From NCBI GenBank assembly GCA_028280605.1, contig JANQLL010000185.1, positions 1,567 to 65,566 of the forward strand: 64,000 nucleotides of DNA, given 5' to 3'. This document shows positions 6,662-57,777 of this stretch, piece after piece (the first letter of the stretch is position 1; each line of letters begins with the position of its first letter). The notes under the pieces were generated by a model. It was not told the origin of the DNA. It searched no databases and saw only the letters and a program-made list of their open reading frames with translations. A program made the position numbers and the translations under genes. Origin of the DNA: Candidatus Gastranaerophilales bacterium. Its GTDB lineage: Bacteria; Cyanobacteriota; Vampirovibrionia; Gastranaerophilales; JANQFW01.

Positions 6662-8281
6662 TTGAGATTAAAGGTATTGGTTTTGACTAAAGAAGCTGCA
6701 AAAATTGAAGACACAGGCCAAAAGGACAATGATAAATACGCATCTATTTTATATTACAGACTGCGCAACAAAATTGTCTTACTTCGCCGTTTTGCCAAAA
6801 ACTGCGATCTGATGGGCTATAAAGATCGCCTACTCGAAGCTGTAAAAACAACAGAAATGCAGTTCGACACTGTAGGCAAAGAATATATGCACATAATGCG
6901 CACAGGCAACTGGAGTAAATTCCTGATACAAAAAATGGAATTTGTTAACATGGGTCTGCAATCTTTTGCAATGAACATAATAGAAAGCGTAGAAAAAAGA
7001 AGAGCCGCCAAGAAATGGCATGCAAGAAAGCCCAAGTCCGATAGGCCAAGCTTCAAAACAAACACAGAAGGTTTAATAAACCTTGCAAAGAAAACTTATT
7101 CGTTGGTAAGCACAAAAATACCCGATGAAATAAGGGCTAAATTTTCAACTCAGCAGATTATTGCAGTTAACAACCTGAATAAGCTAAACCAAAAAATACT
7201 TGAAGAAATCGATATAATAAGAGATAAATTCGATGATTGTCATAAATTTTCTAGATTATTACCGTTAATGATGGAAAAAATGGCTCGTTTGAATCTGGAA
7301 CTCCCAACAGAGTTTGTTGTACTAAGACCATGGTCAATCAATGATTACGAATTATCTGAAGGTAATCCCGAAGATCTCCATTTATTTAAGAAATTGACAA
7401 ATATAAGCAAAAAAATTCTGTCAGAATTAAAGCAAATACACTTTAATCAAGATTTGTTTATGGATATAGTACCTGATCAAGTAAGCTACAGCAATGTTAA
7501 AGAAATTTTGCATCTACCAATCCCAAAAGATTGCTCAAATTCAGAACCTAATGATATATCCTATCCTAAATACCACGAGGGCTTCACCGATCACCCTCTG
7601 ATTAGAATAATAGACGCACACAAAGAGTTATTATACAAAATTCGCTGTGTGCGCCAGTCTCAGTTTAGACTCGATAAAGTCAAGCATAATATCTGTTATA
7701 AAGATGATTATCTTGCTTTGGCACGAGACAAATATTATGATCCATACCAGGAAGACGAAATTAAATACTTTAGCTACGAAACATGGGAAGATGAAGCAGT
7801 AACCCCTGAACAGGAGGAGCAAAGATACAATGAACACTTTGAGTATTACAGGGATTACAAAAATCGTGACTATGAGCAAAGGGTTATCAATGCTCAACGC
7901 CGCAAATCACGCAAATTAATGGCTGTAGAGCGCAACAAATTTGTTGCAGATTGCTGCGAGGAGGCAAGGAAGGAAGCACGCCAACGCAAATTGGAAGACA
8001 GTGCAAAAAAGAAGCTTAAAAATGTTAAACAGGGGAAGTATAAACCGGTTAAAGCCAGCTTGAGATTGAATGCGTTAAAGTTATATAAAGAAGTATCCGC
8101 TAATGCAAAGGTGACCGATGCTGCTTCAGCAGGCGATACTGATATTTTAAAAGATGATAAAAAAGAAAATATTATAAAAGAAGATACTTTTAGCGATGAA
8201 AATAATCAGATAAATAATAATATAATAGATATAAATAATAGTAAGAAAGAAGAATTAAACAAGAAAAAGCCACACTACTAG
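6662..8281 (+). CDS. Hypothetical protein, highly charged, no recognisable domain
   Basis: 539-codon ORF, very unlikely by chance in AT-rich DNA. Start uncertain: TTG with no SD, and internal ATGs are possible. Y/D/E-rich middle and K/R-rich C-terminal third. Confidence 0.6.
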   Translation: MRLKVLVLTKEAAKIEDTGQKDNDKYASILYYRLRNKIVLLRRFAKNCDLMGYKDRLLEAVKTTEMQFDTVGKEYMHIMRTGNWSKFLIQKMEFVNMGLQSFAMNIIESVEKRRAAKKWHARKPKSDRPSFKTNTEGLINLAKKTYSLVSTKIPDEIRAKFSTQQIIAVNNLNKLNQKILEEIDIIRDKFDDCHKFSRLLPLMMEKMARLNLELPTEFVVLRPWSINDYELSEGNPEDLHLFKKLTNISKKILSELKQIHFNQDLFMDIVPDQVSYSNVKEILHLPIPKDCSNSEPNDISYPKYHEGFTDHPLIRIIDAHKELLYKIRCVRQSQFRLDKVKHNICYKDDYLALARDKYYDPYQEDEIKYFSYETWEDEAVTPEQEEQRYNEHFEYYRDYKNRDYEQRVINAQRRKSRKLMAVERNKFVADCCEEARKEARQRKLEDSAKKKLKNVKQGKYKPVKASLRLNALKLYKEVSANAKVTDAASAGDTDILKDDKKENIIKEDTFSDENNQINNNIIDINNSKKEELNKKKPHY

Positions 8282-8366: not shown

Positions 8367-10806
<2,440 letters not shown>

Positions 10807-11040
10807 TTAAACACCATACCTTATGATATTTTAAACATTCTCTTATTTCAAATATATTAAATTCTTTCTACTGCTTTTATTACAAAAAATTTAATAAATA
10901 AATAAAGATAAGAATCATTTTTTCTTGAATAAACATATGTTACAAATATTTGTTTATTATTAAAAAAACTATTTTGTTGTTAAAATAGATTCAGAACCAA
11001 TAAATCAATTAATTATACTGGCGGCGCAGAGGAGGCTCAA

Positions 11041-12414
11041 ATGCACCTAATCAACAAATTAAAAGAAATATCAGCAAATAAGCCAATATTATTTACCACA
11101 CCGGGGCATTCTCAAGGAAAAATAATATTTCCTCAATTAAGAAATTTAATCGGTAAAAAAGTATTTAAAAATGATTATTCAGAGATTATAGGCTTGGATA
11201 ACTTGCAGAATCCTTCTGATACATTGCTAAAATCACAACTTAGATCGGGTGTAATATACGATAGCAAAGCATCTTTTTATTTAACAAACGGATCATCCTC
11301 AGGCATAACAGCACTAATGTTAGCCACAGCTAAAAAAGGTGACAAAATTTTAATAGCAAGAAATGCTCATAAATCTGTGATAAATGCATTAACCCTAACA
11401 GGTGCCATACCTGTATGGTTGGATACAGACTGGATAAATGACTGGAATATATCAAATAATGTTTGTCCGGCTAAATTAAAAGACGCACTGGAAAAAAATC
11501 CTGATATAACGTCAGTGTGGATTACAAATCCAACCTACGAAGGCATAATTGCTGATGTAGCAGAAATATATCAAATCTGTAAAGAGAAAAATGTTATGTT
11601 AATAGTTGATGAAGCTCACGGTGCATTATGGAACTTCCACAATAGTTTACCGGAGCCTGCCATCAAACTTGGTGCTGACGCTTCAGTTCAATCTTTACAT
11701 AAAAGTGCTTCATGCTTAACCCAAGGTGCAATATTACATATAGCCAAGCATTCTTCTATAACCCCTGAAAGAATGCAAAAATGTTTAAATATAACAAGCA
11801 CAACATCACCTTCTTATATATTACTGGCAAGTATAGAAGGATCCATTGAGCATATAAATTCACTACAAGGCGAAAAAGATTTAAGTAAATTATTAGAAAA
11901 CATTGAAAAATTTAAACAAAAATTGGAAAAGTATCCTGAAATTATTTTTTATAATGATGAAAATCATGACCCAACAAAATTGTTGTTTAAGTTAAAAGAT
12001 ATTTCAGGTAATTTAGTAGCTGAACACCTGGAAAATAAAAGAAATATAGAAGTAGAAGTTAATAACGATGTATCATTAATGGCATACACTGGTATTGGTA
12101 CAACAAATAAAAAATTAGACAATTTAATGTCTTCTCTAATTCTGGCAATGAAAACATTACCTCAAAGAAGTTCAGCTCCTTTGTGTCAAAATTATTTCAC
12201 ATCTCCGCATGTGATTTTTTCCCCGGCCGAAGCCTTTCATAAAAAATCAAAAATATTACCAATTCAGGAATGCCAGGGACTTGTTACAAAAGAAACAATT
12301 GTACCTTATCCGCCGGGCATTCCCATCTTGATATGTGGTGAGCTTATTAAGCAAAATCATATTGAATGCTTAATCAAAGCTGGAAAAAAATCTATTGAAA
12401 TAATTATTGATTAA
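11041..12414 (+). CDS. PLP-dependent Orn/Lys/Arg decarboxylase family protein
   Basis: 457 aa. ITNPTYEG, DEAHGA and the SLHKS PLP-lysine motif. Strong SD GAGGAGG upstream. Confidence 0.8.
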   Translation: MHLINKLKEISANKPILFTTPGHSQGKIIFPQLRNLIGKKVFKNDYSEIIGLDNLQNPSDTLLKSQLRSGVIYDSKASFYLTNGSSSGITALMLATAKKGDKILIARNAHKSVINALTLTGAIPVWLDTDWINDWNISNNVCPAKLKDALEKNPDITSVWITNPTYEGIIADVAEIYQICKEKNVMLIVDEAHGALWNFHNSLPEPAIKLGADASVQSLHKSASCLTQGAILHIAKHSSITPERMQKCLNITSTTSPSYILLASIEGSIEHINSLQGEKDLSKLLENIEKFKQKLEKYPEIIFYNDENHDPTKLLFKLKDISGNLVAEHLENKRNIEVEVNNDVSLMAYTGIGTTNKKLDNLMSSLILAMKTLPQRSSAPLCQNYFTSPHVIFSPAEAFHKKSKILPIQECQGLVTKETIVPYPPGIPILICGELIKQNHIECLIKAGKKSIEIIID

Positions 12415-12420
12415 TTTTCC

Positions 12421-12876
12421 TTACTTTTTATTTTTTTTAGAGTTTAATTTTTTGATAACATCTTCAGTTATATCTTCAGCACCATACAAAGTGCTTTCTT
12501 TTCTCACAACTGTTTTTATTTTCTTTTTCTGACTTACATTCTCAATGACTGCATAAATTTGTTTTTGGAGTTTATTCCACTCTTGCATTTTACTTTTTAG
12601 CTCAGCTCTTTTTTTAGCTAAATCTTTGTTGTATTTTTCTTCTTTTTGTTTTTTCTCTACATCATTTTTAGCGCTTTTTATGTCTTTTGATGCTTGTATT
12701 ATAAATTTATGCAGTTCTCTTTCCTGCTTTTTGATTGTTTCTGCTGATTCTTTAGCTTGTGGATAACTATTGATCACTTTATAAGTGTCAATAACTGCAG
12801 TGTCATTAGCAAAAGATTCTACTGTACTATAGTTTAAAAACATCATCATCGCCAAAGTAATAACTATTTTATTCAT
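12421..12876 (-). CDS. OmpH/Skp-like periplasmic chaperone (putative)
   Basis: 151 aa, signal peptide, K/E-rich coiled-coil body of Skp-like size. Confidence 0.55.
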   Translation of the reverse strand: MNKIVITLAMMMFLNYSTVESFANDTAVIDTYKVINSYPQAKESAETIKKQERELHKFIIQASKDIKSAKNDVEKKQKEEKYNKDLAKKRAELKSKMQEWNKLQKQIYAVIENVSQKKKIKTVVRKESTLYGAEDITEDVIKKLNSKKNKK

Positions 12877-25742: not shown

Positions 25743-25849
25743 TATACTCCCACTAAAATACTTTTCAGATTATTAAATCGAGTTAAAGTTAATAAAATAA
25801 ACTATTCTCTGGAAAGAGTAATCTGAAATTTAATTGATGAGCAGTATAA
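25743..25849 (-). repeat. 107-nt imperfect-palindrome repeat, copy A
   Basis: The reverse complement differs from copy C (43590-43696) at 3 of 107 positions by hand alignment. Confidence 0.85.
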
Positions 25850-25895
25850 GTAATATAGTTATTATAATATATTAAACTTAAAATTGCGTTCTGTT

Positions 25896-26921: not shown

Positions 26922-27054
26922 CCATATATAGAGAATGCTCTTTTCTACTTGTTTAGTAAACTTTTTGTAACAATCATTCAACTTTCATGAAATACTTTAA
27001 CAAATATGTTATACTATATATATAGCATATAAATAATAGGTAGGTGTATTGGTC

Positions 27055-27507
27055 ATGAAAATAACACAATACGTTAAAACTCTATTTTTTATTTTGTGGA
27101 ATATGATAACATTCCTATGTTTAATTATTGCCCCGCAAAATTTAAATTCGGTGAAAGAACTTTGTTTATCTGTTCTTAAACGTATAGATAGTTATTTTTA
27201 TAATATATTTTTATATTTAAAAGAATTAAAAAAGAAAATAATAATAAATAAAAACAATAAAGCTGATGCCTCATCAGCACAACCTATTAATAAAAGTAAA
27301 AAACAAGTATTAAACTCGTTTGATATTAATAATAATATATTAAATCAAGCAGTAAAATCTTCAAAACGCTTATCTAACAACAAATTAAAGGATGCGCCAG
27401 CCACGCAAAATTTAATTTCAAAACAGCACTTTTTCCGCTTACAGGATAAGTGTGCCTTTTTATACTCTTTTGTAAGCAAAAACCATTGCAGTCTATATAT
27501 TTTTTAA
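27055..27507 (+). CDS. Small N-terminally anchored K/N-rich protein, paralogue 1
   Basis: 150 aa from the ATG at 27055. TM helix LFFILWNMITFLCLIIA. C-terminal LKDAPATQNLISKQHFFRLQDKCAFLY is shared with 55706-56191. Confidence 0.55.
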   Translation: MKITQYVKTLFFILWNMITFLCLIIAPQNLNSVKELCLSVLKRIDSYFYNIFLYLKELKKKIIINKNNKADASSAQPINKSKKQVLNSFDINNNILNQAVKSSKRLSNNKLKDAPATQNLISKQHFFRLQDKCAFLYSFVSKNHCSLYIF

Positions 27508-27770
27508 TTTTTACATCACATACAATTGAATATTTTTTTCAGCTCTCTTTAAGGCTAAAAGAGGCGGAATTTATAATGGATACTTTAATCACTAGTAAAA
27601 AGTATCCATTATAATTATATATGAATTCCTATGTCATACCCTTAAATTAAATATAAAAATCGGGCTTGGCTCAAAAAAGGGCCAAAGCAAAAGCTAGATT
27701 TAGAAATTATGAATAATATTTTTTTACTTTAAATTTTTATTTCTTAAAATTTTAAAAATTACTTAATATA

Positions 27771-29251: not shown

Positions 29252-29294
29252 GTAAAAATTTAACCTTTTTTGCTTTTTTATTATTAAAATTTTA

Positions 29295-29399
29295 TTATAC
29301 AGGTTTTCAATTAAATTTCAGATTACTCTTTTCAGAGATTAGCTTACTTTATTAACTTTTACACTATTTAAAAATCTGAAAAGTATTTTAGAAGTAATA
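29295..29399 (+). repeat. Imperfect-palindrome repeat, copy B (diverged)
   Basis: About 85% identical to copy C by hand alignment. Lies between the rhodanese stop and the DUF1007 start. Confidence 0.75.
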
Positions 29400-29408
29400 T
29401 AAATATAT

Positions 29409-41740: not shown

Positions 41741-43357
41741 ATGAATGTTTGTCCCTCAACGAAGTCAAATAGCAGTTACAGCCAAATAAAGCACAATCAT
41801 AAACATAAACAAAATTTAACTTTTAAAGGCGATTCACTAACCACGGCTTTAGAACTGATTGATACAAATATTCTATTGGATTTATTAGGACGTGATGCTG
41901 TATCTATGATAATCCCCAGGACGGTAGTTGACTTTACGAGAAGCCAGCAAGCAGGATGGGAAACATTAAGGGGAGAAGTTGGAGGCGTATCTTTTGATAC
42001 ATTATATCCTATAGCAGCGGCTTATGGGTTAATGTTTGTAGCCAAGCATATTAATAATCCTAATAAGGTTGAAACACGTATCCATGCTAACCGTGAAATG
42101 ATGGATAACCTTACAAATATTTGGAAAAATTCCAACCAAGATAAAAGAAAATATGTTGAAGCCATTATTAATAACATTGAAGGCCTAAATGGCAGCAATG
42201 GCAACTGGAAAAACTTAGTAGATGAGCTTAATGGTAAAAATATTGAAGGCATTATTGATACTATTTCAAAAGCAATAGAAAACAACAATCCGAAAAAGCT
42301 CAAAGAGGCTCAAAAAATTATCTTAGAAACAATAGGTGCAAATAGAAATATACGATTAAAAAATAACAAGCCTATTGAAACATCTCTGGATAGTTTGTTA
42401 GGGAATACTTTCGATATGGGACGACATGTATTCTTTAAAGATAACCTACAAGGCAATAAAACTAAAATAAATAATGCCATAAAACGAATTAAGACGCTTA
42501 ATTTATGGAAATCAAAACTTGTTCTTGGCTCAGCATCATTTATAGGTGTGTCAATACAGCCACTAAATGCTTATTTGACTAAGAAAAAAACAGGTAAAGA
42601 AGGATTTGTAGGTAATCCTAATTTTCATGCTGACTCGCAAAAAGATAAATCTCATAACCTTCTTTTGGGCAAATTTGCAGCTGCAAGTGCTTTTGGTCTT
42701 ATGATATTATCAACTATAACCGGTAAAGGTCCTGTTAGATTTATTAAAGAGCTTGCCAGCAAAAATGGCTTTAAAAACTTCTTAAAAAAGCTAGAATTTA
42801 ACGATAAATTTTTAAATGCAGATCAATTAAAGCTCACGTTCGCAGCATTGATAATGGGAAGAGTTTTTGCAGCCCGCGATAAAAATGAATTAAGGGAAAC
42901 ATCAGTAAGGGATAGTTTAGGATTCTTGCATTATCTAGTATTAGGTGGCTTTGTCACCAAAGGCGTAGCAGCCTTTTTACAGCATAAAAATAAAAATCTT
43001 CATTTAATCAATGAAAGCCAGCCCTTCCAATCAACTAAAAAAGGTTTTGGCAAATTCATTGATCAAGTTGGGCATTTTATTTCAAATAAATCTGTCAAAT
43101 CACACGCAGAAATTAGAACACTTGAAAAAGGGCTTGTTAACAAAAATCTTTGTATGCTTAATTTGTCAATTTTATCTGGTATAGCTTATACATGTGCAAT
43201 GCTTGGTATTGGAATTCCTCTACTAAATAAATTTATGACAAATAAATTAGTTAAAAAGGTCGGCGATAAAGAGGCAATTCCTCCAATACCTATTAATAAT
43301 AAAATAGAAATGAGTCAAAAGAATAAGCAGCTATTTGGGCAATTTATAAAGCCGTAA
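41741..43357 (+). CDS. Hypothetical multi-pass membrane protein
   Basis: 538-aa ORF with several hydrophobic segments in the C-terminal half. No family recognised. Confidence 0.55.
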   Translation: MNVCPSTKSNSSYSQIKHNHKHKQNLTFKGDSLTTALELIDTNILLDLLGRDAVSMIIPRTVVDFTRSQQAGWETLRGEVGGVSFDTLYPIAAAYGLMFVAKHINNPNKVETRIHANREMMDNLTNIWKNSNQDKRKYVEAIINNIEGLNGSNGNWKNLVDELNGKNIEGIIDTISKAIENNNPKKLKEAQKIILETIGANRNIRLKNNKPIETSLDSLLGNTFDMGRHVFFKDNLQGNKTKINNAIKRIKTLNLWKSKLVLGSASFIGVSIQPLNAYLTKKKTGKEGFVGNPNFHADSQKDKSHNLLLGKFAAASAFGLMILSTITGKGPVRFIKELASKNGFKNFLKKLEFNDKFLNADQLKLTFAALIMGRVFAARDKNELRETSVRDSLGFLHYLVLGGFVTKGVAAFLQHKNKNLHLINESQPFQSTKKGFGKFIDQVGHFISNKSVKSHAEIRTLEKGLVNKNLCMLNLSILSGIAYTCAMLGIGIPLLNKFMTNKLVKKVGDKEAIPPIPINNKIEMSQKNKQLFGQFIKP

Positions 43358-43589
43358 ATAATTGAGATTTAAAAAACATTAAGGATTATTAAGTATTGTT
43401 TGCTATAAACATGCTGATTTGTATGCATCAAAATTTTATTGAAAATATTATTAATTTATATCTTTTTGATTTTATTTTTTTTTAAAGATAATAATAGTCC
43501 ATTTGATTTAGCAATTATTTAGAAAACTTTGTTTTTATAATATTGGAGATAAGGATGAAGCAAAAAGAAAAGGGTAAGAAAAAAGCTAA

Positions 43590-43696
43590 TTATACTGCTC
43601 ATCAATTAAATTTCAGATTACCCTTTTCAGAGAATAGTTTATTTTATTAACTTTAACTCGATTTAATAATCTGAAAAGTATTTTAGTGGAAGTATA
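43590..43696 (+). repeat. 107-nt imperfect-palindrome repeat, copy C
   Basis: 104/107 identical to the reverse complement of 25743-25849. Internal perfect pairing TTTCAGATTA (43611-43620) with TAATCTGAAA (43667-43676). Confidence 0.85.
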
Positions 43697-44036
43697 ATAA
43701 CAAAGTTTAAATAAAAAATAAAGCTTATAAAATAAGCTGAAAACTGAAGCGAATAGTTAAAAGTTAATTGTGAGTATTATAAATAATATTGAAGTGAAAA
43801 AGATAGGGAAATAAATTCCGCTAGTGTTAAAATGATGCGGAAAAAGGGAATAAACAGGGGAAGTAAGATATTTTAGCGTGTAAAACACGAGATTGAAAAA
43901 TTAAATAGGATCAGGAATTTGGACGAGTAAGTTTAGGAAGCTTATATACAGAATTGCAAAAAAATACCTCATATACCTTAATATACCTCATAGCTTATAC
44001 ACATATTGCAGTTTATACAAACTGCATTTTTATTTT
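43697..44036 (+). ncRNA. Candidate GGA-rich, C-poor non-coding RNA ending at an intrinsic terminator
   Basis: Eight GGA motifs lie between 43807 and 43938. Local hairpins include TTCCGC..GCGGAA and CGTGT-AAA-ACACG. No ORF of 60 aa or more in any frame. Terminator at 44007-44036. Confidence 0.3.
44007..44036 (+). terminator. Intrinsic terminator
   Basis: 8-bp stem TGCAGTTT/AAACTGCA, 4-nt loop, then TTTTTATTTT. Confidence 0.65.
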
Positions 44037-44114
44037 ATAAAACAGGCTTTATTAATGCTTATGGTTGTATTACGATAAGTTTTGATCAAATGAAACTATT
44101 AAAATGGGGGAAAG

Positions 44115-44555
44115 ATGGAATACACACAAGCTTCACAAGGTAGGGTATTTGTCGCAAGAATAGATGACAGCGAAGATATGATAGAAGAACTAAAAAAAAT
44201 TATCAAAAAAGAAAATATTAGAGCCGGTTTTGTGCACTTAATGGGAGCTTTATCTTCAAGCAAAGTTGTTTTAGGTCCTGAAGAAAAGGAATATCCGCCT
44301 AATCCCGTATGGTGGGAACATAATGATGTGTTTGAAGTGGCTGGCTTGGGAGTTTTTGCCTGGGAAAATGATGAACCTAAAATTCATATACATTCTTCTT
44401 TTGGTAATTATAAAGATACAAAAATGGGTTGTATCAGAGAAAAAGCAGAAGTCTATCTAACTATAGAAGCTGTTATACAAGAAGTTATCAACCCTAATAT
44501 CACCAGAAAATTAGATGATAGATATAACGCAAGCTTGCTAAATTTTAAATATTAA
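44115..44555 (+). CDS. PPC/DUF296-domain protein
   Basis: 146 aa. N-terminal GRVFVARIDDSEDM and central HLMGALSS pattern of the PPC (DUF296) fold. Confidence 0.65.
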   Translation: MEYTQASQGRVFVARIDDSEDMIEELKKIIKKENIRAGFVHLMGALSSSKVVLGPEEKEYPPNPVWWEHNDVFEVAGLGVFAWENDEPKIHIHSSFGNYKDTKMGCIREKAEVYLTIEAVIQEVINPNITRKLDDRYNASLLNFKY

Positions 44556-45550
44556 TGAAAAAAGAAGATATATTTATAAAAATAATTCAAAATGCACTGC
44601 CTTCTTCTAAAGATTATATTGGCGATGATACAGCTTTTATTAAAGAAAAAGATATTGTAATTACTCAAGATACTTTAGTTGAGGATGTGCATTTTAGAAC
44701 TGCTACAATCAGTCCGTATAATTTAGCGCAAAAAGCTGTTGCTGTTAATCTTAGCGATATTGCAGCAGCTGGAGCGGTCCCTTCTTATTTGGTAATATCT
44801 CTTTCCCTTCCAGGGCATATAAAAGAAGATTATATAAAAGAATTTTATAAAGGTATTAACGATATTTGCACAAAATATCATGTCTTAACCATTGGCGGGG
44901 ATTTGACAGGTGGAGAAAAAATAGTAATTAGTATAACTATGCTTGGCAATTGCAATAGTATACCTCCGGCAGCTCGATCTAATGCTCGGGTAGGTGATTA
45001 TATAATTACAACAGGTGAATATGGTTCCAGTTTTATGGGGTTTAATATTTTAGAAAATCCTGATAATATTTATAATTTAACGGATATTGAAAAAGAATAT
45101 TTTAAAAATGCTCATATCAATCCAATCCCACGAGTAAAAGAGGGTCTAGTAATCGCGGAAATTAACAAGAATAATAAATTATGTATGATGGATACTAGTG
45201 ATGGGCTTGCAGATGCATTATTTAAAATTTCAAAACTAAGTAATATCAGTATGGAAATAGATTATAATTCTATACCCTTTAATTCAGCTTTAGCTAAAGC
45301 TGTTAAAAGCAAGTCTGATATTTTCAATTGTATTTTATTTGGGGGAGAAGATTATGAGCTGGTGGCATGTGTAACTCAAAGTACATTAAAAGAACTTAAG
45401 AAAAATCGTGTAAAATTTTCTGTTATTGGAAGAGTTGCCAAGAATTTTGGTTCTGCTAAAATAATAATGAAACTGGATGATAAAATTTTTGAACTAACAA
45501 AAAACTTATTAGAAAATAACTTATTTAATCATTTTAAGGATGATCTATGA
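44555..45550 (+). CDS. thiL: Thiamine-monophosphate kinase ThiL
   Basis: IGDDTAF, AVNLSDIAAAGA and DTSDGLADAL motifs of the AIR-synthase-related family. Confidence 0.85.
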   Translation: MKKEDIFIKIIQNALPSSKDYIGDDTAFIKEKDIVITQDTLVEDVHFRTATISPYNLAQKAVAVNLSDIAAAGAVPSYLVISLSLPGHIKEDYIKEFYKGINDICTKYHVLTIGGDLTGGEKIVISITMLGNCNSIPPAARSNARVGDYIITTGEYGSSFMGFNILENPDNIYNLTDIEKEYFKNAHINPIPRVKEGLVIAEINKNNKLCMMDTSDGLADALFKISKLSNISMEIDYNSIPFNSALAKAVKSKSDIFNCILFGGEDYELVACVTQSTLKELKKNRVKFSVIGRVAKNFGSAKIIMKLDDKIFELTKNLLENNLFNHFKDDL

Positions 45551-46281
45551 AAATAACCGCTCTTATTCCTGCGGCAGGTTCAGGTAGCAGGTTCGATATA
45601 CAAAAAAATAAATTGCTAACAGACTTAAATGGTACGCCAGTAATAGTCAAAACATTATTGCAAATAGTGCAAAATCCTCTTATTGATAAAATCTTAATCT
45701 GCACTTCAGTTGATATAGAGAATGAAATAAGTATATTAATAAAAAAATATAGTATACCTAAAATACAAGCTGTTATTATTGGAGGAGATACCCGCCAAGA
45801 GTCTGTATATAAAGGCTTGAAGTATTTAAGCTTAGATCCGCCTGACTATATTTTGATTCACGATGGGGCAAGACCTTTATTAACACAGGATATAATAAAT
45901 AATTCAATAGAGAGAACCTTTGAGTATGGTGCTTCTATAGCTGCAGTTCCTGTAAAAGACACAATAAAAATAGTTAAATCTGGTAAAGTAGAAAATACAC
46001 CTGCTAGAGAAGAACTTTTTGCGGTTCAAACCCCTCAAACTTTTAAATTTAGAAACTTGCTTAATGCTCATGACATATTTAAAAATAATAATTTTACTGA
46101 TGATGCTGCACTTGTAGAAAAAATGGGTCTGCCTGTTGTTGTATCTCAGGGTAGTTATAAAAATATAAAAATTACAACTCAAGAAGATTTATCCATTGCC
46201 GAGTGCTTTGATAGAGAATTATTTAATCCATTGCAAACCACAATGCACCACGAACAGGAATCACTATGCATATTGCAATAA
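45547..46281 (+). CDS. ispD: 2-C-methyl-D-erythritol 4-phosphate cytidylyltransferase IspD
   Basis: IPAAGSGSRF N-terminal motif. Family-like sequence ends near residue 222; the last ~20 codons overlap the convergent bioY-like gene. Confidence 0.9.
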   Translation: MKITALIPAAGSGSRFDIQKNKLLTDLNGTPVIVKTLLQIVQNPLIDKILICTSVDIENEISILIKKYSIPKIQAVIIGGDTRQESVYKGLKYLSLDPPDYILIHDGARPLLTQDIINNSIERTFEYGASIAAVPVKDTIKIVKSGKVENTPAREELFAVQTPQTFKFRNLLNAHDIFKNNNFTDDAALVEKMGLPVVVSQGSYKNIKITTQEDLSIAECFDRELFNPLQTTMHHEQESLCILQ

Positions 46282-46948
46282 AGCTTAGTAGTAAATCATA
46301 AGGCAATTGAATTCCACTTAATGCCCATATCCATCCAAAAAGCTCCAATACTTGTTGGGTATTAACTATTATTATTCCTATTAAATATAAAATCCCAACA
46401 AGATGTATTGCAAAAACTCCGGTTAATGTTGCGATAAAGTATTTTTTTAAATTGAATTTTATACCATTTAAGTAGTGAGCGACTAGGGTTGTTCCTAAAA
46501 GATAGCCTAATATATATCCAAAACCCTTTTGATTAACATATTCAATACCTCCGCCTGAAGCAAAAATCTGGCATCCCAGCAAGCCGGCTGTAATATATAA
46601 GAGTACTGCAAAAATGCCCAACCTTGCCCCTAATAAGGCTCCTGCAAATAATACTAAAGGTATTTGAGGTATATAATAATACGTAGTAGTTATTTCACTT
46701 ATGTCTTTGATATTTTTAAAATACTGAGGCGGATTAGTAAAAGCTTGCTCAGGTATTGTTAAAATATACAGGGGTAATTTAGTAAATGTAGCTATAACAA
46801 TAAAAAATGTACATAGAATCGCTACTAAAACAGCTCCAATTCTAATTTTTGGATAACTGTCTATAAATGCTTGATACTTAGTATTACTAAATAATCTTTT
46901 ATAAATATTTTTAAACTTTGGATACTTCGAATTTTTTATTAAGTTCAT
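46223..46948 (-). CDS. bioY: BioY-family biotin transporter S-component (putative)
   Basis: Pattern LFAGALLGARLG..LLYITAGLLGCQIFASGGG...FGYILGYLLG...LPYDLL resembles the BioY family. Has an N-terminal extension and a loop insertion. Confidence 0.6.
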   Translation of the reverse strand: MNLIKNSKYPKFKNIYKRLFSNTKYQAFIDSYPKIRIGAVLVAILCTFFIVIATFTKLPLYILTIPEQAFTNPPQYFKNIKDISEITTTYYYIPQIPLVLFAGALLGARLGIFAVLLYITAGLLGCQIFASGGGIEYVNQKGFGYILGYLLGTTLVAHYLNGIKFNLKKYFIATLTGVFAIHLVGILYLIGIIIVNTQQVLELFGWIWALSGIQLPYDLLLSFIAICIVIPVRGALWFAMD

Positions 46949-47441
46949 TTTTCAACACTTCAAACATTTCTTTAAAATTAGTATTCCAGATATTTTCTGT
47001 CCACATTATCAGTGCATCTTCGTCATTATCTTGATAGTATTTGGGTCTTGCACCAAGGCTTTTAAATCCATATTTGTAATATAAATTTTGAGCCGGAACA
47101 TTGGACACTCTTACTTCTAGTGTAATCCATTTTGCCATATTTTCATAGCAAGCATCTACTATTTGTTGTAAGAGCAATTCGCCGACAGATTTTTTTCTAT
47201 ACTCAGGAGCTACGGCTATTGTTGTAACATGGGCTTCTTCTTGTATTAGCCAAAAACCACAATATCCTATAACCTTGCCTGTTTCCAAGTCTTCAGCTGT
47301 ATAATAATACCCAAGGTCATTATTAATCTCAGAAAGAAACGATTGTCTTGACCAGTGATGTTCACCAAAAGAAGCACTCTCTATTCTCATAATCTGATCC
47401 ACGTCTTTTTTATGCATTTGTCTTATCTGTATCTTATACAA
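46911..47441 (-). CDS. rimI: GNAT N-acetyltransferase, RimI-like
   Basis: 176 aa. Acetyl-CoA motif IAVAPEYRKKSVGELLL. Confidence 0.75.
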   Translation of the reverse strand: MYKIQIRQMHKKDVDQIMRIESASFGEHHWSRQSFLSEINNDLGYYYTAEDLETGKVIGYCGFWLIQEEAHVTTIAVAPEYRKKSVGELLLQQIVDACYENMAKWITLEVRVSNVPAQNLYYKYGFKSLGARPKYYQDNDEDALIMWTENIWNTNFKEMFEVLKNELNKKFEVSKV

Positions 47442-47708
47442 CGTTGATATCTCTTATCTATAGTTTTTTATTTTACTTATTCCATCTCTTAAAAAATTAT
47501 AAGCTAAATATTATTCTGATTCAAAATTAAATTTATTATTTAAAATTTCAATTATCTAATTTTACTTGTAGAAAATAAATTATATATATTTAAACTATTA
47601 ACATTATTGATCTTATGTAATCAGTATAAGAATATATTATGTATGAACAAATAGCTAAAAAAATATACGTAACTGGAGAAAGTAGACCTTAATAAAAAGG
47701 AGAGTTAG

Positions 47709-48716
47709 ATGAGTTTTAGAATTATTAAAGCGTTAACTGTGGCACTGGCTATTTTAATGAATTTATACGCAATCCAGGCCTTTGCAGAAGCTAAAAAAAT
47801 TCTTCACATCGCATCTTATCATGACGCTTACAGTTGGACTCATAGAATTGATATAGGTATAAAAAAAGGTTTGAAACGCAGTTTCAATAATACTCCTTAT
47901 GAATACAAAGTATTTTATATGGATACTAAAAGGAAGAATAAGCCAGAACAGATATTATCAGCAGCAGAAGAAGCAGAAAAAATTATTAAACGCTGGAATC
48001 CTGATATTATTATTACATCAGATGATAATGCTACAAAGTATGTTACTTCACCATTAAAAGACTCTGGAAGAAAATTTGTATTTACCGGTGTTAATAATGA
48101 ACCTTCAATATATAATTTGCCAAACAAAAATGTGACTGGTATTATTGAAAGATTTCATGCTAAAGATGGTATCTATCTTTTAAAAATGTTAAAACCAAAC
48201 TGTAGTAAAGTGGTTATGCTCTCTGATGACTCTATTACCGGAAAATTAATTTCCGAACAACTTAAATTTACAATAAAAGAAGAAAACTTCGATCTCCTAG
48301 GCATACATGCTACTGGGTCTTTTAAAGAATGGAAAAGCTTAGTTAAAAAATATCAGGGCAAGGCAGATGCTTTTTATGTAATTGTGTATTTTACGATGAA
48401 AGACAACGACGGCAAGCCAGTGCCTGGCCCTGAAGTACTAAAATGGACCAGAATAAATTCAAAGATACCTGAAATAGGCTTTTGGCCATTTGTGACAGAT
48501 CATGGAGGGTTAGCATCAATTGGCGTTGATGGGGTTGAACAAGGTTATGCAGCATCTAAAATAGCTGTAAAAATTTTAAATGGTACTTCTCCTGCAGATA
48601 TTACAACTAAGGTTACAAGTAAAAGCACTTTGTATATCAATTCTAAAAGGGCTAGAGAGCTAAATATTATTATTCCTTGCGAATTAATGGAAAGCGCTTT
48701 TTTGATAGAAAAATAA
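47709..48716 (+). CDS. ABC-transporter substrate-binding protein (orphan)
   Basis: Signal peptide plus periplasmic-binding fold. No adjacent permease or ATPase. Confidence 0.65.
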   Translation: MSFRIIKALTVALAILMNLYAIQAFAEAKKILHIASYHDAYSWTHRIDIGIKKGLKRSFNNTPYEYKVFYMDTKRKNKPEQILSAAEEAEKIIKRWNPDIIITSDDNATKYVTSPLKDSGRKFVFTGVNNEPSIYNLPNKNVTGIIERFHAKDGIYLLKMLKPNCSKVVMLSDDSITGKLISEQLKFTIKEENFDLLGIHATGSFKEWKSLVKKYQGKADAFYVIVYFTMKDNDGKPVPGPEVLKWTRINSKIPEIGFWPFVTDHGGLASIGVDGVEQGYAASKIAVKILNGTSPADITTKVTSKSTLYINSKRARELNIIIPCELMESAFLIEK

Positions 48717-48791
48717 AATTTTATTAATAAAATATTGAATTTCTTTTATGTAATATATATCATAATTTTAATAAGTAAAAAGTAGTATTAA

Positions 48792-48880
48792 AATAGAATA
48801 ATTGGGAAACTTCGGTGAAAATCCGAGGCTGTGTCGCAACTGTAAGGGTAAAACCTAAGCCAGAACACCACTATTCTATT
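48792..48880 (+). promoter_or_regulatory. Cobalamin riboswitch aptamer (compact form)
   Basis: GGGAAAC..GGTGAAAATCC..GCTGTGTCGCAACTGTAAGGG..AGCCAGAACACC core with B12-box-like element. P1 pairs AATAGAATA (48792-48800) with TATTCTATT (48872-48880). Lies upstream of the btuBCDF-like genes. Confidence 0.8.
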
Positions 48881-49116
48881 CTATCTTACTCTTGCGATGC
48901 ACAAGAAAAGGAGATAAAAGATGATAAAATTAGAATAGCACAATCTATATTGACAGACTTCTTATTTTAAGTTTGTTCTTTTGTATAAAATTCTCAAAAC
49001 TTAATAATTTATACAAAAACCTAATTTTAAAAGTCAAATAAGTAATATAACATTTATTATTACCTATTTGATTAATGTTGATTTGTTTTATATATAGAAA
49101 GAACTAAAAAGAAAAT

Positions 49117-51129
49117 ATGAAAAAGATTTTAATAACAGCAGCAACACTTAGCATATTAAGCATAGGACAGTCATTTGGTGCAGATATAGATAATGTTAAA
49201 CCTGATACACAAAAAATAGAACAATGTAAATTTATTGAATTCGGTAAAGTAGAAGACTGCCAAGTATATAGTATAGATAACATGCCGCAAGATATCAAAA
49301 CATCAACCAGCAGCGCAGAAATTATTAATTTAAACGATGATAATAACGCTCAAAAAACTACTTTAAATGAGCTCCTTAATGACTATACAGGTATTACAAC
49401 GCAAGACCTGGGTTCTGCCGGCATGACAAGCTCAATAAGAATCCGAGGCTGGAATAGAGTTGGCCTTACTCTTGACGGTGTAAAAATTGACAACCCCAGC
49501 TATGGCTATGCAGACTTAACACACTTTTCTAATAAAGATTTAGAAAGAATTGAAGTAATAAAAGGTCCTCAAGGAAGCATACATGGCGATAGTACGCACG
49601 GTGGCTTAATCAGTTTAACAACCAAACAAGGCCACGGGAGTCCAAAGATTGACTATGAGCAAAAATTTGGTTCATATAGTACTTTTCAAGAAGGTGTTTC
49701 ATTTTCAGGCGGTAATACCTCGGCTGATTATTATATTGGCGTATCAAGACTAGACACAAACGGTGGAGCTATAACTACTTCAGATGGCAAATCCAAACGA
49801 GATGATTACTCTAACTTTACAATATCTGCAAATATAGGTAAAAGATTGATGGACACTAAAGCTGAACTAAGAAATACCTTCAGATACATTGAAGCTAAAA
49901 AGAATGTTGGTATAAGTGAAAACTATTTTGCAGGCACAACAGTATTTGATCCAAATGCAAGAAGCCAGAACACACAGATAATAAACTCAACAACATTTAG
50001 CCATAAGCCATTTAGCTGGTATGATTATAATCTAAAAACCGGCTATGTTGGATTTGAGAACTTTTTTGAAGACTTTATAGACAGCTATGGTGTAGATACT
50101 AACAATAATAACAATAAAGCAAGAAATGACAGGTTTATTGTTTCTACCCAACATAATCTAAAATACAAAGATATAGATACGTTTTCTTTTGGTTATACAT
50201 TGGAGCATAATAATTTTAACCAAAAATCATTTGGTGACGGAGTTTGGGGTTACAACGACAGATTCTCTAGGAGTTATACAACAGGGCATGTATTTTTTAA
50301 TAACAAAATTAACATAAAAGATACCCTAATAATAAAAGCCGGCACTGGTATAGAAGATTCTAAATGGGGTACTTACGCAACACCAAATGTATCAGGTGCA
50401 TTAATATTGCCAACACCGTTTATAGATAATTCTTATACCAAGCTAAGGTCAACATACGGTAATTCTATTAATTATCCTACGCCATTTCAGTTTGGCGGTG
50501 TTTTCTTTGGCTCACCGGCAGGCAATCCTAACTTAAAGCCAGAAAAATGCAGCGGTTGGGATGTCGGCGTTATTCAAAGCTTATTCAATGATAAAATTAA
50601 CTATGAGTTCGCTTATTTTGACAATAACTATACTGATTTAATAGATTGGAGCGGGACAACCTACTATAATATTTCAAAAGCGCAGACTTCAGGCTTTGAG
50701 AATACTTTAAAAGTTAACTTTTTATCAGGTATTTACGGTTTAGCTAATTACACCTATACTAATAATAATGGCTTTAATAATAACGACATTGGAGGCGTGC
50801 CAAGAAACAGGTTCAACTTTAAGCTTGGCTATTCACCTAAAGAAAGATATAATGTCTTTGCTACAGGAACCTCAGCTTCCAGCAGAGCCTATAACACAAA
50901 TGGTGCCAGAGTTGACGGATTTTTTAAACTAGCACTTGGTTCAAAGGTTAGGTTATTTAGTGTTGACAATGCACACGTTTATCTGTGGGGAAGGCTTAAT
51001 AATATCCTCAATGACAGATACGAAGTCTACAAAGGATACAAGCATCCTGGCATTAGCTTTATAACAGGATTGCAAGTTAAATTTAACCTGCCTGACTTTA
51101 AGAAAAAATCTGCGCCTGATAAAGTATAG
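49117..51129 (+). CDS. btuB: TonB-dependent outer-membrane receptor, BtuB-like
   Basis: Signal peptide, plug motif IEVIKGPQGSIHG, long beta-barrel region. Riboswitch context. Confidence 0.8.
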   Translation: MKKILITAATLSILSIGQSFGADIDNVKPDTQKIEQCKFIEFGKVEDCQVYSIDNMPQDIKTSTSSAEIINLNDDNNAQKTTLNELLNDYTGITTQDLGSAGMTSSIRIRGWNRVGLTLDGVKIDNPSYGYADLTHFSNKDLERIEVIKGPQGSIHGDSTHGGLISLTTKQGHGSPKIDYEQKFGSYSTFQEGVSFSGGNTSADYYIGVSRLDTNGGAITTSDGKSKRDDYSNFTISANIGKRLMDTKAELRNTFRYIEAKKNVGISENYFAGTTVFDPNARSQNTQIINSTTFSHKPFSWYDYNLKTGYVGFENFFEDFIDSYGVDTNNNNNKARNDRFIVSTQHNLKYKDIDTFSFGYTLEHNNFNQKSFGDGVWGYNDRFSRSYTTGHVFFNNKINIKDTLIIKAGTGIEDSKWGTYATPNVSGALILPTPFIDNSYTKLRSTYGNSINYPTPFQFGGVFFGSPAGNPNLKPEKCSGWDVGVIQSLFNDKINYEFAYFDNNYTDLIDWSGTTYYNISKAQTSGFENTLKVNFLSGIYGLANYTYTNNNGFNNNDIGGVPRNRFNFKLGYSPKERYNVFATGTSASSRAYNTNGARVDGFFKLALGSKVRLFSVDNAHVYLWGRLNNILNDRYEVYKGYKHPGISFITGLQVKFNLPDFKKKSAPDKV

Positions 51130-55042: not shown

Positions 55043-55705
55043 TCTAAAATTACCCTCTTTATTACTTATTAATGTACTTTTTTGACGAGTATGTCCACGT
55101 AAATTCTATACTTATCAAGCTTAAAAATAATCATTCATTTTAAGTAAAAGGGTATATATAATGTACTGAGAAAACTGAACCAGAAAAAATAAAAAGTGTT
55201 TCCCTGATAAAATAAATTAAATAAAGAATGAAATCATCTAAAATTGTTTCATCCAATTTAGTTTCTTTTTTGTCAAAAATCAGAGAAGACTGATTATATA
55301 AAACTTTTGAATCATACGACATTAAAGACTTTGTTGATAGACCCTTAAAATATACTTTAACAAAATTAATTGATATATCTTGTTTAAAGGATATTGATGG
55401 TGGGAATTTAAACGAAGATATTGCAAGGCAAAGGGAATGCCCCAAAATCCTTATTTCAAAGTAAAAAAAAGAATACAAGAGCTGAAGAAAGAAAATTAAT
55501 AATATACAAAATGAATAATATAACAGTGCAAGCACAAAGCAATCAAATCTTTTAAGCTAAGCGTGCTTTAGAAAATTTTTCCTTGATTTTTTATTAAGAA
55601 ATGCTACAAAATTAGCATTTTCACATTTCAGGAGCCTGCGGAAATTTTAAAAAAATGCTAAAATATATATAAAGTATACAATTGAAATTAGTGAGTGTAT
55701 TGGTC

Positions 55706-56191
55706 ATGAAACTATCACAATACATAAAAACTTTATATGCAATCTTGTGGAATCTAATAGCATTCCTATGTTCAATTATTTCATTAAGTAATATCACGAA
55801 AAAGAAAACACCTTCTTTTTCGCTTTTAGTATATGCTTACAATATTTTAACCATGACTTATAAAGATTTAAATGAACTTATAAATAATATATTATCAAAA
55901 CAAAAACATAATAACACTGCTGCAACAACGGCAGTAACAAACCCTATATACAAAAACAAAAACTCTGTATCAAACAGAGTAAAATCTAATAACATATTAA
56001 TAAACCAAGCACTAAAAAGTGCAAACTTATTATCAACCTTGAGATTAAAGGATGCGCCAGCCACGCAAATGTTAATTTCAAAACAGCACTTTGTTCGCTT
56101 ACAGGATAAGTGTGCCTTTTTATACCCCTTTTGTAAGCAAAAGTCATTGCAGTTAATAAATCTTTTAATTTTTACATCAACACATAATTGA
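55706..56191 (+). CDS. Small N-terminally anchored K/N-rich protein, paralogue 2
   Basis: ATG at 55706. TM helix LYAILWNLIAFLCSIISL. C-terminal LKDAPATQMLISKQHFVRLQDKCAFLY is shared with 27055-27507. Confidence 0.5.
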   Translation: MKLSQYIKTLYAILWNLIAFLCSIISLSNITKKKTPSFSLLVYAYNILTMTYKDLNELINNILSKQKHNNTAATTAVTNPIYKNKNSVSNRVKSNNILINQALKSANLLSTLRLKDAPATQMLISKQHFVRLQDKCAFLYPFCKQKSLQLINLLIFTSTHN

Positions 56192-56254
56192 ATATTTTTT
56201 TTGACTCTCTTTAAGGCTAAAAGTACGGGTTTTGTGATGCCCGCATAATCTATA

Positions 56255-56334: not shown

Positions 56335-57777
56335 CTAAACTTTTGCTTCTACGTTATTAACAATTTTTTTAGTATCTTCAACAAGCTTGTCCATCTTATC
56401 CTGAGTATCAGTCTCAAAGTAGATTCTTAATAAAGGCTCAGTCCCGCTAGGCCTAATTAACATCCAACTGTTATTGTCCTCAAAATAAAGCTTAACACCA
56501 TCCAGTTGGTTTTCCTCAGTAACTTTCATTCCTCCAACCGCTGATGGTGCACTTTCTACAAACATTTTCATTGCCGCATTTTTTGTTTCTTCGGTCAAGC
56601 GTAAGTCAAGCCTGTAATTTAAATACTGACAATTAGTTTCCCTTTTTAAATCCTCAATAATTTCATATAAAGGCTTGTTTTCATAAGCAATAGCTTCTAA
56701 AATTGCCAGGTTAGCTACAATACCGTCTTTTTCCGGTATATGCTCAATAATGCTTAGCCCGCCGGACTCTTCGCCCCCAACAAGAACATCTTCCTGTCTC
56801 ATAATCTGACCAACCCATTTAAACCCGACAGGTGTCTCGTGAACCTTAACATCACCGTATATTTTAGCGATTTTATCTATCATTTGGCTGGTAGCAACTG
56901 TTTTAACAACAGAGCCTTTTTTGCCTTTGTTTTTAACTAAATGTCTGAATAAAACGGCAATAACTTCATTTGGTGTAATATAGTTGCCTTTTTCATCAAT
57001 AACACCAAACCTGTCAGCATCACCGTCAGTACTAAATCCAATAGCAGGAGCCTGTTTAACAACTAACTCTTTTAACTTGCCTAAGAATTTTTCTTTAGGC
57101 TCAGGCATAGCCCCACCAAACAACGGGTCTCTTTCATTGTTAAGTGTAACTGTCTCGATGCCTGCATCTTCTAATAGTGTATTTAAGTACCCTCTACCGG
57201 TTGAAAATAAAGCATCATAATAAACTTTGCACTTTATGTTCTTCTTAATCATATCAAAGTCAATCAAGTTATTGACCCACTTAAAGTATTCCGGCTTAGG
57301 ATCAAAGCTTTCGATTTTACCCTTAGTTGCGGATGCTTTGATAAAGGTATCATCACCAGCCTGCAATCTTTGTACGTTAGAAACTATAACATCCGTAATA
57401 TCAGTAGTAGCAGGTCCCGCATAATCAGGGATATATTTAATACCGCACCACTCAGGAGGGTTATGGCTCGCTGTTAACATAAGGGCACCGGCCGTATTAT
57501 AAAATTTTGCCGCATAAGCTACAACAGGAGTTGGTGCATCTCTATCAACTACCATAACGTTTAATCCAAGATCGCTGAGTATTTCAGCTGCTTTTTGCGC
57601 AAACTTGTCAGCTAAAAATCTTGGGTCATAACCGACAACAACTGGTCGACCAGGATCATATTTGGTTTTAATATATGCAATTACTGCTTTTGTAACTATT
57701 TCTACATTGTCAAAAGTAAAATCTTGAGCTATTATCGCTCTCCACCCATCTGTTCCGAATTTAATTGGTCTTGCCAT
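56335..57777 (-). CDS. Phosphoglucomutase/phosphomannomutase family protein
   Basis: Active-site TASHNPPEWCGIKY and the metal loop FSTDGDADR. Confidence 0.9.
   Translation of the reverse strand: MARPIKFGTDGWRAIIAQDFTFDNVEIVTKAVIAYIKTKYDPGRPVVVGYDPRFLADKFAQKAAEILSDLGLNVMVVDRDAPTPVVAYAAKFYNTAGALMLTASHNPPEWCGIKYIPDYAGPATTDITDVIVSNVQRLQAGDDTFIKASATKGKIESFDPKPEYFKWVNNLIDFDMIKKNIKCKVYYDALFSTGRGYLNTLLEDAGIETVTLNNERDPLFGGAMPEPKEKFLGKLKELVVKQAPAIGFSTDGDADRFGVIDEKGNYITPNEVIAVLFRHLVKNKGKKGSVVKTVATSQMIDKIAKIYGDVKVHETPVGFKWVGQIMRQEDVLVGGEESGGLSIIEHIPEKDGIVANLAILEAIAYENKPLYEIIEDLKRETNCQYLNYRLDLRLTEETKNAAMKMFVESAPSAVGGMKVTEENQLDGVKLYFEDNNSWMLIRPSGTEPLLRIYFETDTQDKMDKLVEDTKKIVNNVEAKV

Follow-up and report, generated by a model that had tools for sequence, protein, structure and literature searches.

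The 64-kb window analysed here (64,000 nt of contig JANQLL010000185.1 of a Candidatus Gastranaerophilales bacterium, numbered along the plus strand) contains a 757-nt gap, 43358–44114, between a 538-aa open reading frame (ORF) at 41741–43357 and a PCC-domain gene at 44115–44555, and the question raised by this locus is what such a gap, correctly reported by the initial annotation to hold no ORF of at least 60 aa, may encode. The annotation had proposed 43697–44036 as a candidate RNA bearing the hallmark of protein-sponge RNAs of the CsrB/RsmZ type, which sequester the GGA-binding regulator CsrA, and had also considered an sRNA-sponge role. The present analysis indicates that 43529–44036 is very probably an independent, clade-specific and functional gene for a non-coding small RNA (sRNA), located on the plus strand. 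Binding and titration of CsrA by this RNA is the leading guess as to its function, but a weak and tentative one. The support at the sequence level consists of the conservation of the unit, the lack of coding constraint, the terminator and the strand that it defines, the counts of GGA motifs, and the occurrence of FliW and CsrA in the clade; transcription of the unit is a prediction from such features.

Relatives of the locus were sought with the PCC protein in one genome per species, which gave four loci. The two close ones, L001 (JANQHM010000104, 96% amino acid identity of the PCC protein) and L002 (JANQFW010000059, 94%), belong to metagenome-assembled genomes labelled Candidatus Gastranaerophilales, an order of the phylum Melainabacteria. 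The proposal of an RNA had been made dependent on its conservation in relatives, and blastn and nhmmer found the element in both genomes, 5′ of the same PCC–AIRS–IspD genes. The 3′ 110–140 nt of the element match or exceed the adjacent coding genes in conservation: nucleotide identity between the genomes is 92–94% in this 3′ domain, compared with 88% for PCC, 83–85% for AIRS and 81% for IspD. The stretch 43908–44007 is 94% identical to L001 and ranks in the top 6% of 100-nt windows along the 5.4 kb that are syntenic between the two; a comparison intergenic region, 47508–47707, reaches 57–68% identity. The best-conserved part of the whole unit is a CCU-rich stretch immediately before the terminator, which is 100% identical in the three genomes.

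The next PCC homologues are at most 68% identical (down from 96%), and their loci (L003, L004, L021 and L022, 59–68%) lack the element, mostly having no room for it 5′ of the PCC homologue. A search with blastn against phage and plasmid collections gave no match to the element. Two pattern scans produced matches attributed to chance: five in metagenomes with TTTAGGAAG-N15–40-ACCTCATATACC, none of them confirmed by nhmmer, and a single one in IMG/VR with a 19-mer from hairpin C (43927–43945), inside a coding region. The comparison with covariance models suggested by the initial annotation disclosed no known family: with Rfam 15 no relevant match was obtained on the window at gathering thresholds, none meaningful up to E = 10 under permissive filters on 43300–44200, and none in the loci of the relatives. 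The known family has three members, all from one study. Assemblies of the same samples were observed to break in or near the element: position 1 of Logan contig L012 (SRR20820735), which is 100% identical to window 43972–48104 and ends inside the RNA, corresponds to 43972, position 1 of L011 corresponds to L010 5875, and the third break is position 1 of L002. These breaks fit the invariant domain and the repeats being common to co-occurring strains and confusing assemblers, and collections of short contigs will consequently under-represent the RNA.

The conservation is not that of a protein-coding gene. All ORFs of at least 15 aa were enumerated on both strands in the three orthologues. In L001 the near-invariant 3′ domain (43895–44006) carries two 1-nt indels, one in the A-run 43958–43964 and the other at AGGAUCAGG, which exclude a conserved ORF on either strand. 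The small ORFs considered as conserved genes on both strands were rejected, as the indels re-frame them and no Pfam or NCBIfam match was found for those checked. The minus-strand mini-ORF 43972–43901, coding for a hydrophobic peptide of 23 aa (MRYFFAILYISFLNLLVQIPDPI), deserves separate treatment. Its core, FF(A/T)IL(Y/F)ISFLNLL(V/A)QIP, can be read in each of the three genomes. In every one of them hairpin A (43816–43842), viewed on the minus strand, is followed by UUUAUUU, a possible terminator for that strand. Both observations favour a type I toxin–antitoxin-like pair, in which the peptide would be opposed by a plus-strand antisense RNA and constraint on both strands would explain the conservation. 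The frame itself is not maintained: L001, which has a 1-nt deletion, reaches the peptide core solely from a different ATG, and its second 1-nt indel alters the C-terminus. Substitutions in the peptide are mostly non-synonymous (A6T, Y9F, D21I and V-to-A, versus one synonymous), and it has no match in Pfam or NCBIfam. Hydrophobic frames are expected on a T/C-rich strand, several others being present here; the AAGG preceding the ATG stands just 3 nt from it, and no conserved sequence that could act as a minus-strand promoter is found right of 44036. A toxin–antitoxin pair is thus very improbable.

A Lys-rich mini-ORF was also noted by the TATAAT box at the 5′ end of the unit (window 43543–43650, plus strand; L002 292–351; L010 5223–5291). 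Its starts (TTG, GTG or ATG) and frames differ between the genomes and it would begin 5′ of the likely transcription start; when the inserted repeat described below is disregarded, its stop is a homologous TAA in each of them, even though L001 has a +2/+1 indel pair. The mini-ORF is probably a by-product of A-rich composition.

The orientation of the gene follows from its 3′ end. The intrinsic terminator reported initially was borne out: an 8-bp stem with a 4-nt loop at 44007–44026 (TGCAGTTT-ATAC-AAACTGCA) is followed by TTTTTATTTT, the whole extending to 44036 on the plus strand. It is the sole such site in 43200–44300, where 0.2 would be expected, and in the orthologues the stem is kept and the loop varies. 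Only the plus-strand side has the T-run, from which the direction of transcription follows. A canonical, strand-specific terminator with a conserved stem and a variable loop weighs against a conserved regulatory region acting as DNA rather than as RNA, for example through protein-binding direct repeats (TATACC, 9–10 bp spacing). Such a region is suggested by three ATACCT(C/T) repeats spaced at 9–10 bp and by TATAC-like pentamers recurring in 43945–44003, but the conservation extends over more than 250 nt, far beyond the needs of a cluster of binding sites, and an invariant TATAAT box stands upstream. Among the explanations weighed here, a purely DNA-level element is the least probable.

The segment between the terminator and the PCC gene (44037–44114, plus strand) is conserved in the three genomes and represents the promoter and 5′ untranslated region of the PCC–AIRS–IspD operon, outside the RNA. 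The element is always directly 5′ of the PCC gene and co-oriented with it, and just 79 nt lie between terminator and start codon in the window, as might be expected if it were a long 5′ leader or attenuator of this operon (the AIRS protein being ThiL-like), a protein or metabolite deciding whether transcription from the 43536 promoter passes the terminator at 44007. In the relatives the same distance is 257 nt (L002) and 342 nt (L001), and about 170–290 nt of extra, unrelated and GC-richer sequence parts the terminator from the PCC promoter block. This variable sequence argues against a simple long 5′ untranslated region of the 44115 operon, an outcome that the initial annotation had regarded as fatal to its proposal. 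In addition, no anti-terminator alternative is evident, the predicted fold is no better than that of shuffled sequences (z = −1.2), no riboswitch model matches, and the PCC homologues at 59–68% identity do without such a leader, some of them having no room for it. An attenuator is therefore improbable. The extra sequences (L010 5660–5925 and L002 675–850) are partly alike (GAAGC...GATGCAAGC.TTAA.AAGA.AGC), absent from the window and devoid of Rfam matches; they could be another small element, or their absence could reflect a deletion in the window.

At the 5′ end, the boundary of 43697 chosen in the initial annotation is not natural, since the conserved unit begins at about 43529 and the sequence 43590–43696 is a repeat insertion. 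The unit opens with the box TTGTTTTTATAAT (43529–43541, plus strand), identical in the window, L002 and L001/L010, in which TATAAT at 43536–43541 is probably the −10 element of the promoter; no good −35 hexamer was found for this box. With TATAAT taken as the −10 element, transcription would start near 43548, at the beginning of a 5′ purine-rich segment (43548–43589, plus strand) containing AUAAGGAUGAAG with a GGA at 43553. This segment is alignable in the three genomes, its AAGGAUG piece being absent from L002. It is followed by a 107-nt repeat resembling a miniature inverted-repeat transposable element (MITE), designated copy C (43590–43696), and by a poorly conserved spacer (43697–43785, plus strand) with 36–61% identity to L001 in 100-nt windows; the L001 spacer holds a different, oppositely oriented repeat fragment.

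Two plus-strand domains make up the remainder. The module domain (43786–43894), 68–73% identical to its orthologues, carries GGA at 43807, 43839, 43847 and 43859 together with hairpins A and B. Its conserved, GGA-bearing blocks centre on GAUAGGGAAAU and GGGGAAGUAAGAU, and a 12-nt GGA module, AGGGAAUAAACA, missing in L002, is present or absent as one unit among the genomes. The near-invariant domain (43895–44006), in which the 94% identity to L001 mentioned above is reached, carries GGA at 43908, 43914, 43921 and 43936 and hairpin C, followed by three motifs resembling anti-Shine–Dalgarno sequences: ACCUC at 43966–43970, ACCUU at 43975–43979 and ACCUC at 43985–43989. From the TATAAT box to the terminator the unit probably measures about 490 nt in the window, including the 107-nt MITE, and about 375–430 nt in the relatives, the insertion-free version of L002 occupying L002 298–674. 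There may also be a shorter form, of about 240 nt, starting just before 43796 or at the outward promoter-like site of the MITE. Just 5′ of 43796, a TAnnnT box was recognised by eye in the three-way alignment of all three genomes, with no −35 element at the proper spacing.

The gene upstream of the unit differs in each genome, being the 538-aa ORF in the window, a TPR-like gene in L001 and, judged by eye, the start of a divergent minus-strand gene in L002, yet about 170 nt 5′ of the TATAAT box align, from which it appears that the unit moves as a cassette and, on this comparison, remains attached to the PCC side. A hairpin was observed at about 43378–43408 (L002 about 118–155), approximately 130–150 nt 5′ of the box. 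Its pairing is apparently kept via double changes (AAACA...TGTTT in the window versus GCAGGCAA...TTGCCTGC in L002), and it might be a terminator that insulates the cassette from upstream genes.

The orthologous site of copy C in L002 is empty, GCTAATTATA being joined there directly to AGAAGGTTTAAA, which identifies copy C as an insertion. The assignment of 43590–43696 to the MITE-like class rests on its being short, non-coding and multi-copy, on its occurrence in both orientations, on its inverted termini and on the empty site. Members of the family, about 107–117 nt long, are located in the window at 25743–25852 (minus strand), 29286–29402 (plus strand) and 43581–43697 (plus strand, copy C), and fragments are present in L001 at 374–489, 2245–2268, 3314–3411 and 7650–7674. 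Copy C is 96% complementary to 25743–25852 and 84% identical to 29286–29402. The repeat ends in imperfect terminal inverted repeats (TTATACT...AGTATAA) and contains an internal long-range inverted repeat, TTTCAGATTA...TAATCTGAAA. Either end carries a promoter-like CTGAAA-16-TATAAT site directed outward, and the one at the right end of copy C reads out of the repeat.

The reading of this RNA as a ligand of CsrA was prompted by its GGA trinucleotides, and a recount placed all eight of them exactly at the positions given above for the two domains. Eight is the maximum over all 132-nt windows on either strand of the 64 kb and is attained only here; with 150-nt windows, the minus-strand coding stretch 56352–56612 has nine and several coding stretches have seven. 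The cluster is the top non-coding one of the window, yet no wild outlier. The initial estimate of about one GGA agrees with the window mean (1.15 per 132 nt) but not with the local composition: dinucleotide-preserving shuffles of 43697–44036 give a mean of 4.5 (sd 1.5), with P = 0.025 for at least eight. The same comparison yields P = 0.01 and 0.04 in the two orthologues, and once the dinucleotide content of the region is allowed for, the enrichment in GGA as such is about 1.7-fold. The region is indeed cytosine-poor, with C at 33 of its 340 bases (9.7%), compared with a content of 16.4% for the whole window. Each of the three genomes retains the same six of the eight GGA. The 251-nt conserved core holds eight and the full unit, of 377–489 nt, seven to ten, mostly in A(N)GGA contexts within weakly structured purine-rich sequence. 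CsrB contains 22 GGA in about 369 nt and RsmY/Z contain 7–8 in about 120 nt, the density in CsrB/RsmZ being about one per 15–17 nt. The densest 132 nt of the element, with its eight GGA, are thus comparable to RsmY/Z, but the density over the whole core is about half that of CsrB/RsmZ.

The predicted structure was compared among the three orthologues, and RNAalifold and the single-sequence ensembles concur on four elements only: hairpins A, B and C and the terminator. Hairpin A, the TTCCGC/GCGGAA pair of the initial annotation, exists (43816–43821 with 43837–43842), although its loop has 15 rather than 14 nt and its end is one base later than was stated; it is retained through G–U changes. Hairpin B (CGTGT-AAA-ACACG, 43877–43889) was described correctly and is absent from L001. 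Hairpin C (43927–43945) has pairs invariant in the three genomes and presents GGA 43936 at its apex. The CCU-rich stretch 43958–44006 is mostly unpaired in the predicted ensembles. Taken together, these folding predictions and pair counts neither support nor refute an RNA structure.

A ligand of CsrA presupposes CsrA. A tblastn search with the CsrA proteins of E. coli and B. subtilis as queries found no csrA within the 64-kb window, but the gene, which the initial annotation had expected in the genome, is encoded together with fliW in both relatives (Pfam CsrA). The CsrA of L001 matches that of E. coli with E = 8e-18. The gene order in L001/L010 is signal peptidase, FliW (PF02623; L010 3397–3942), a 95-aa CsrA (PF02599; L010 3967–4254) and a 242-aa TPR-like protein. 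About 190 nt separate the TPR-like gene from the promoter box of the RNA, so that in L001 the RNA gene is directly 3′ of fliW-csrA-TPR. In the genome of L002 the same operon occurs on another contig, L013, which continues with a GNAT gene and transposase genes and then ends. The L002 contig with the RNA begins about 290 nt 5′ of the RNA promoter box, for which reason the two contigs could be neighbours. Another NCBI assembly encodes a third CsrA, 98% identical, which is probably that of the window's own genome. The residues required for RNA binding in E. coli CsrA (L2, L4, R6, V40, V42/I42, R44 and I47) are present in the L001 protein, and by this analogy the CsrA of the clade should bind GGA.

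The fliW-csrA-TPR-like trio was seen across Melainabacteria, at L010 3397–5028, L013 7434–9044, L014 5508–7043, L015 5502–7051 and L017 4655–6209. Its third gene, uncharacterised, codes for 236–246 aa with faint Pfam TPR matches only and always lies within a few bases after csrA. In L013, the region 3′ of the trio (9360–12441) contains the GNAT gene, several transposase genes or fragments (Transposase_mut, DDE_3 and HTH) and the contig end; in this clade, the sequence 5′ of the RNA gives the impression of a hot spot of rearrangement. A GGA-rich stretch in L014 turned out to be coding sequence beside a tRNA-like sequence.

In the reading that we favour for its function, the RNA would be transcribed from the TATAAT box at 43536–43541 and end at the 44007–44036 terminator; its 7–10 GGA motifs would bind CsrA dimers of the organism, and it would thus titrate or modulate CsrA in parallel with FliW, the antagonist that is a protein. 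The invariant CCU-rich stretch before the terminator would then constitute a second module, either controlling turnover or pairing with Shine–Dalgarno-like sequences, as in dual-function RNAs such as McaS. CsrA binding is suggested by the enrichment of GGA in all three orthologues (P = 0.01–0.04), by the six GGA that are kept, the 12-nt GGA module gained or lost as a unit and the invariant hairpin with GGA at its apex, by a size and terminator like those of CsrB, and by a CsrA in the clade whose operon is adjacent in one relative.

A series of observations nevertheless weighs against CsrA binding, and the proposed CsrB/RsmZ-type sponge is supported in part, as a conserved, terminated non-coding unit in a clade with CsrA. 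Local purine richness explains most of the GGA excess, because dinucleotide shuffles already average 4.5 GGA, and the trinucleotide-specific excess is modest; the core has one GGA per 31 nt. On 43300–44200 no covariance model of CsrB, CsrC, RsmX, RsmY or RsmZ matched, even weakly. Folding is no better than in shuffles; GGA 43839 falls in the stem of hairpin A, the others have mixed unpaired probabilities in weak structure, and only hairpin C clearly presents a GGA at its apex. Counting of pairs on the four hairpins shows no double changes, a lack of covariation that is to be expected when only three near-identical sequences are compared. The best-conserved 50 nt (43958–44006) are CCU-rich and hold no GGA at all, which a pure sponge model leaves unexplained. 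The element is narrowly distributed whereas csrA is widespread, and the distant melainabacterial fliW-csrA-TPR loci (L014, L015 and L017–L019) have neither an adjacent homologue of the RNA nor an intergenic GGA cluster. As the adjacency seen in L001 is absent at these loci and the RNA of the window is not near csrA, it may be a matter of chance. Finally, a protein antagonist, FliW, is encoded next to csrA in the clade. Antagonising sRNAs are missing from the FliW-type systems investigated to date (PMC4894983, PMC7652899); the FliW carriers C. jejuni and H. pylori are without them (PMC4894983). The fliW gene is anti-correlated with BarA–UvrY, the activators of Csr sRNAs, and the joint action of FliW and sRNAs in any species "remains to be determined" (PMC7652899). 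The presence of FliW, together with this literature, makes a sponge less likely a priori, and more interesting should it be one.

The CCU-rich stretch is the starting point of another explanation, namely a trans-acting base-pairing sRNA whose single-stranded 43958–44006, with three anti-Shine–Dalgarno-like motifs, would block ribosome-binding sites; the GGA richness would be incidental or serve an A/G-preferring chaperone such as an Hfq-like protein. That this stretch is the best-conserved part of the unit, identical in the three genomes, predicted to be mostly unpaired and adjoining a terminator with a U-tail, corresponds to typical sRNA anatomy. A duplex scan over 60 translation-initiation regions (55 in the window and five in L010, including fliW and csrA) brought out no target, the best value of −21.8 kcal/mol being no better than what shuffled seeds give (mean −21.7 kcal/mol). 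At 240–490 nt, the RNA is also long for a simple seed-type sRNA, and its conserved, modularly duplicated GGA motifs would be left unexplained. Base pairing as the function is rather unlikely and ranks second, after CsrA binding. A further proposal holds that CsrA is uninvolved and that the RNA has another protein partner or role, with an Hfq-type or S1-type binder of A/G-rich sequence or an undescribed regulator. Strong sequence conservation with little predicted structure fits an RNA recognised by a protein or by multiple partners, and no known family matches; nothing specific points to such a partner, however, and the GGA enrichment, though modest, recurs in three orthologues. Another partner appears decidedly unlikely.

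Two further features of the window were recorded. An AdoCbl (cobalamin) riboswitch at 48779–48917, scoring 61 bits against a gathering score of 50 (Rfam 15), is unrelated to the element; it is located 5′ of a TonB-dependent receptor gene (49117–51129, Plug and beta-barrel), the expected arrangement for B12 uptake. The segments 27035–27561 and 55686–56223, each of about 500 nt, are 79–88% identical in the same orientation and cover ORFs of 152 and 169 aa, for which Pfam gave nothing significant, together with downstream non-coding sequence; judged from this identity, they represent a diverged duplication of an unknown gene.

Melainabacteria are the non-photosynthetic sister group of cyanobacteria and are known almost only from metagenomes, their regulatory RNAs being essentially uncharted. 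The element is a well-delimited, strongly conserved sRNA candidate without an Rfam counterpart, a very small new family in an uncultured phylum. If CsrA binding is true, a single organism can have both an RNA and a protein that antagonise CsrA, and sponge RNAs reach beyond Gammaproteobacteria, which would bear on whether antagonism of the FliW type and of the sRNA type act together and would constitute a new variant of the Csr system. It is possible, although doubtful, that this is the first CsrA-titrating sRNA outside Proteobacteria, in a melainabacterial lineage that also uses FliW. If the CCU-rich tail acts, the element represents a new family of base-pairing sRNAs.

Among known systems, the element resembles CsrB/CsrC of E. 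coli and RsmX/Y/Z of Pseudomonas as an independent non-coding gene of a few hundred nucleotides with multiple, often A(N)GGA, motifs, at least one GGA at a hairpin apex and an unstructured stretch before a Rho-independent terminator; GGA-bearing modules are likewise gained and lost between relatives, and a cognate CsrA is present in the clade. It differs from them in matching no Rfam model, in its GGA density of about half, in having most GGA outside predicted loops and in its host, a melainabacterium that also encodes FliW, where CsrA binding is a prediction only. The CsrB/Rsm families are gammaproteobacterial and depend on BarA–UvrY/GacS–GacA, whose genes are anti-correlated with fliW (PMC7652899). 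With Sib/Ibs type I toxin–antitoxin systems the element shares very high nucleotide conservation and an RNA that is antisense to the whole of a very short hydrophobic ORF, but here the ORF is broken or re-framed in one of three genomes, a proper ribosome-binding site and a conserved promoter are lacking, and the locus is single-copy. Like the flaA mRNA leader of Campylobacter jejuni, it would modulate CsrA alongside FliW without canonical Csr sRNAs (PMC4894983); flaA, however, is an mRNA that is translated and whose leader has two GGA hexaloops, whereas the element is non-coding, has its own terminator and carries 7–10 GGA. McaS of E. coli and SR1 of B. subtilis, finally, show no homology to the element, are shorter and have known targets, whereas none stood out for the element. 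They share with it the combination of GGA motifs with a separate single-stranded region of possible pairing, here the CCU-rich tail, and SR1 indicates that an interplay between CsrA and an sRNA exists in an organism with FliW (PMC6546359).

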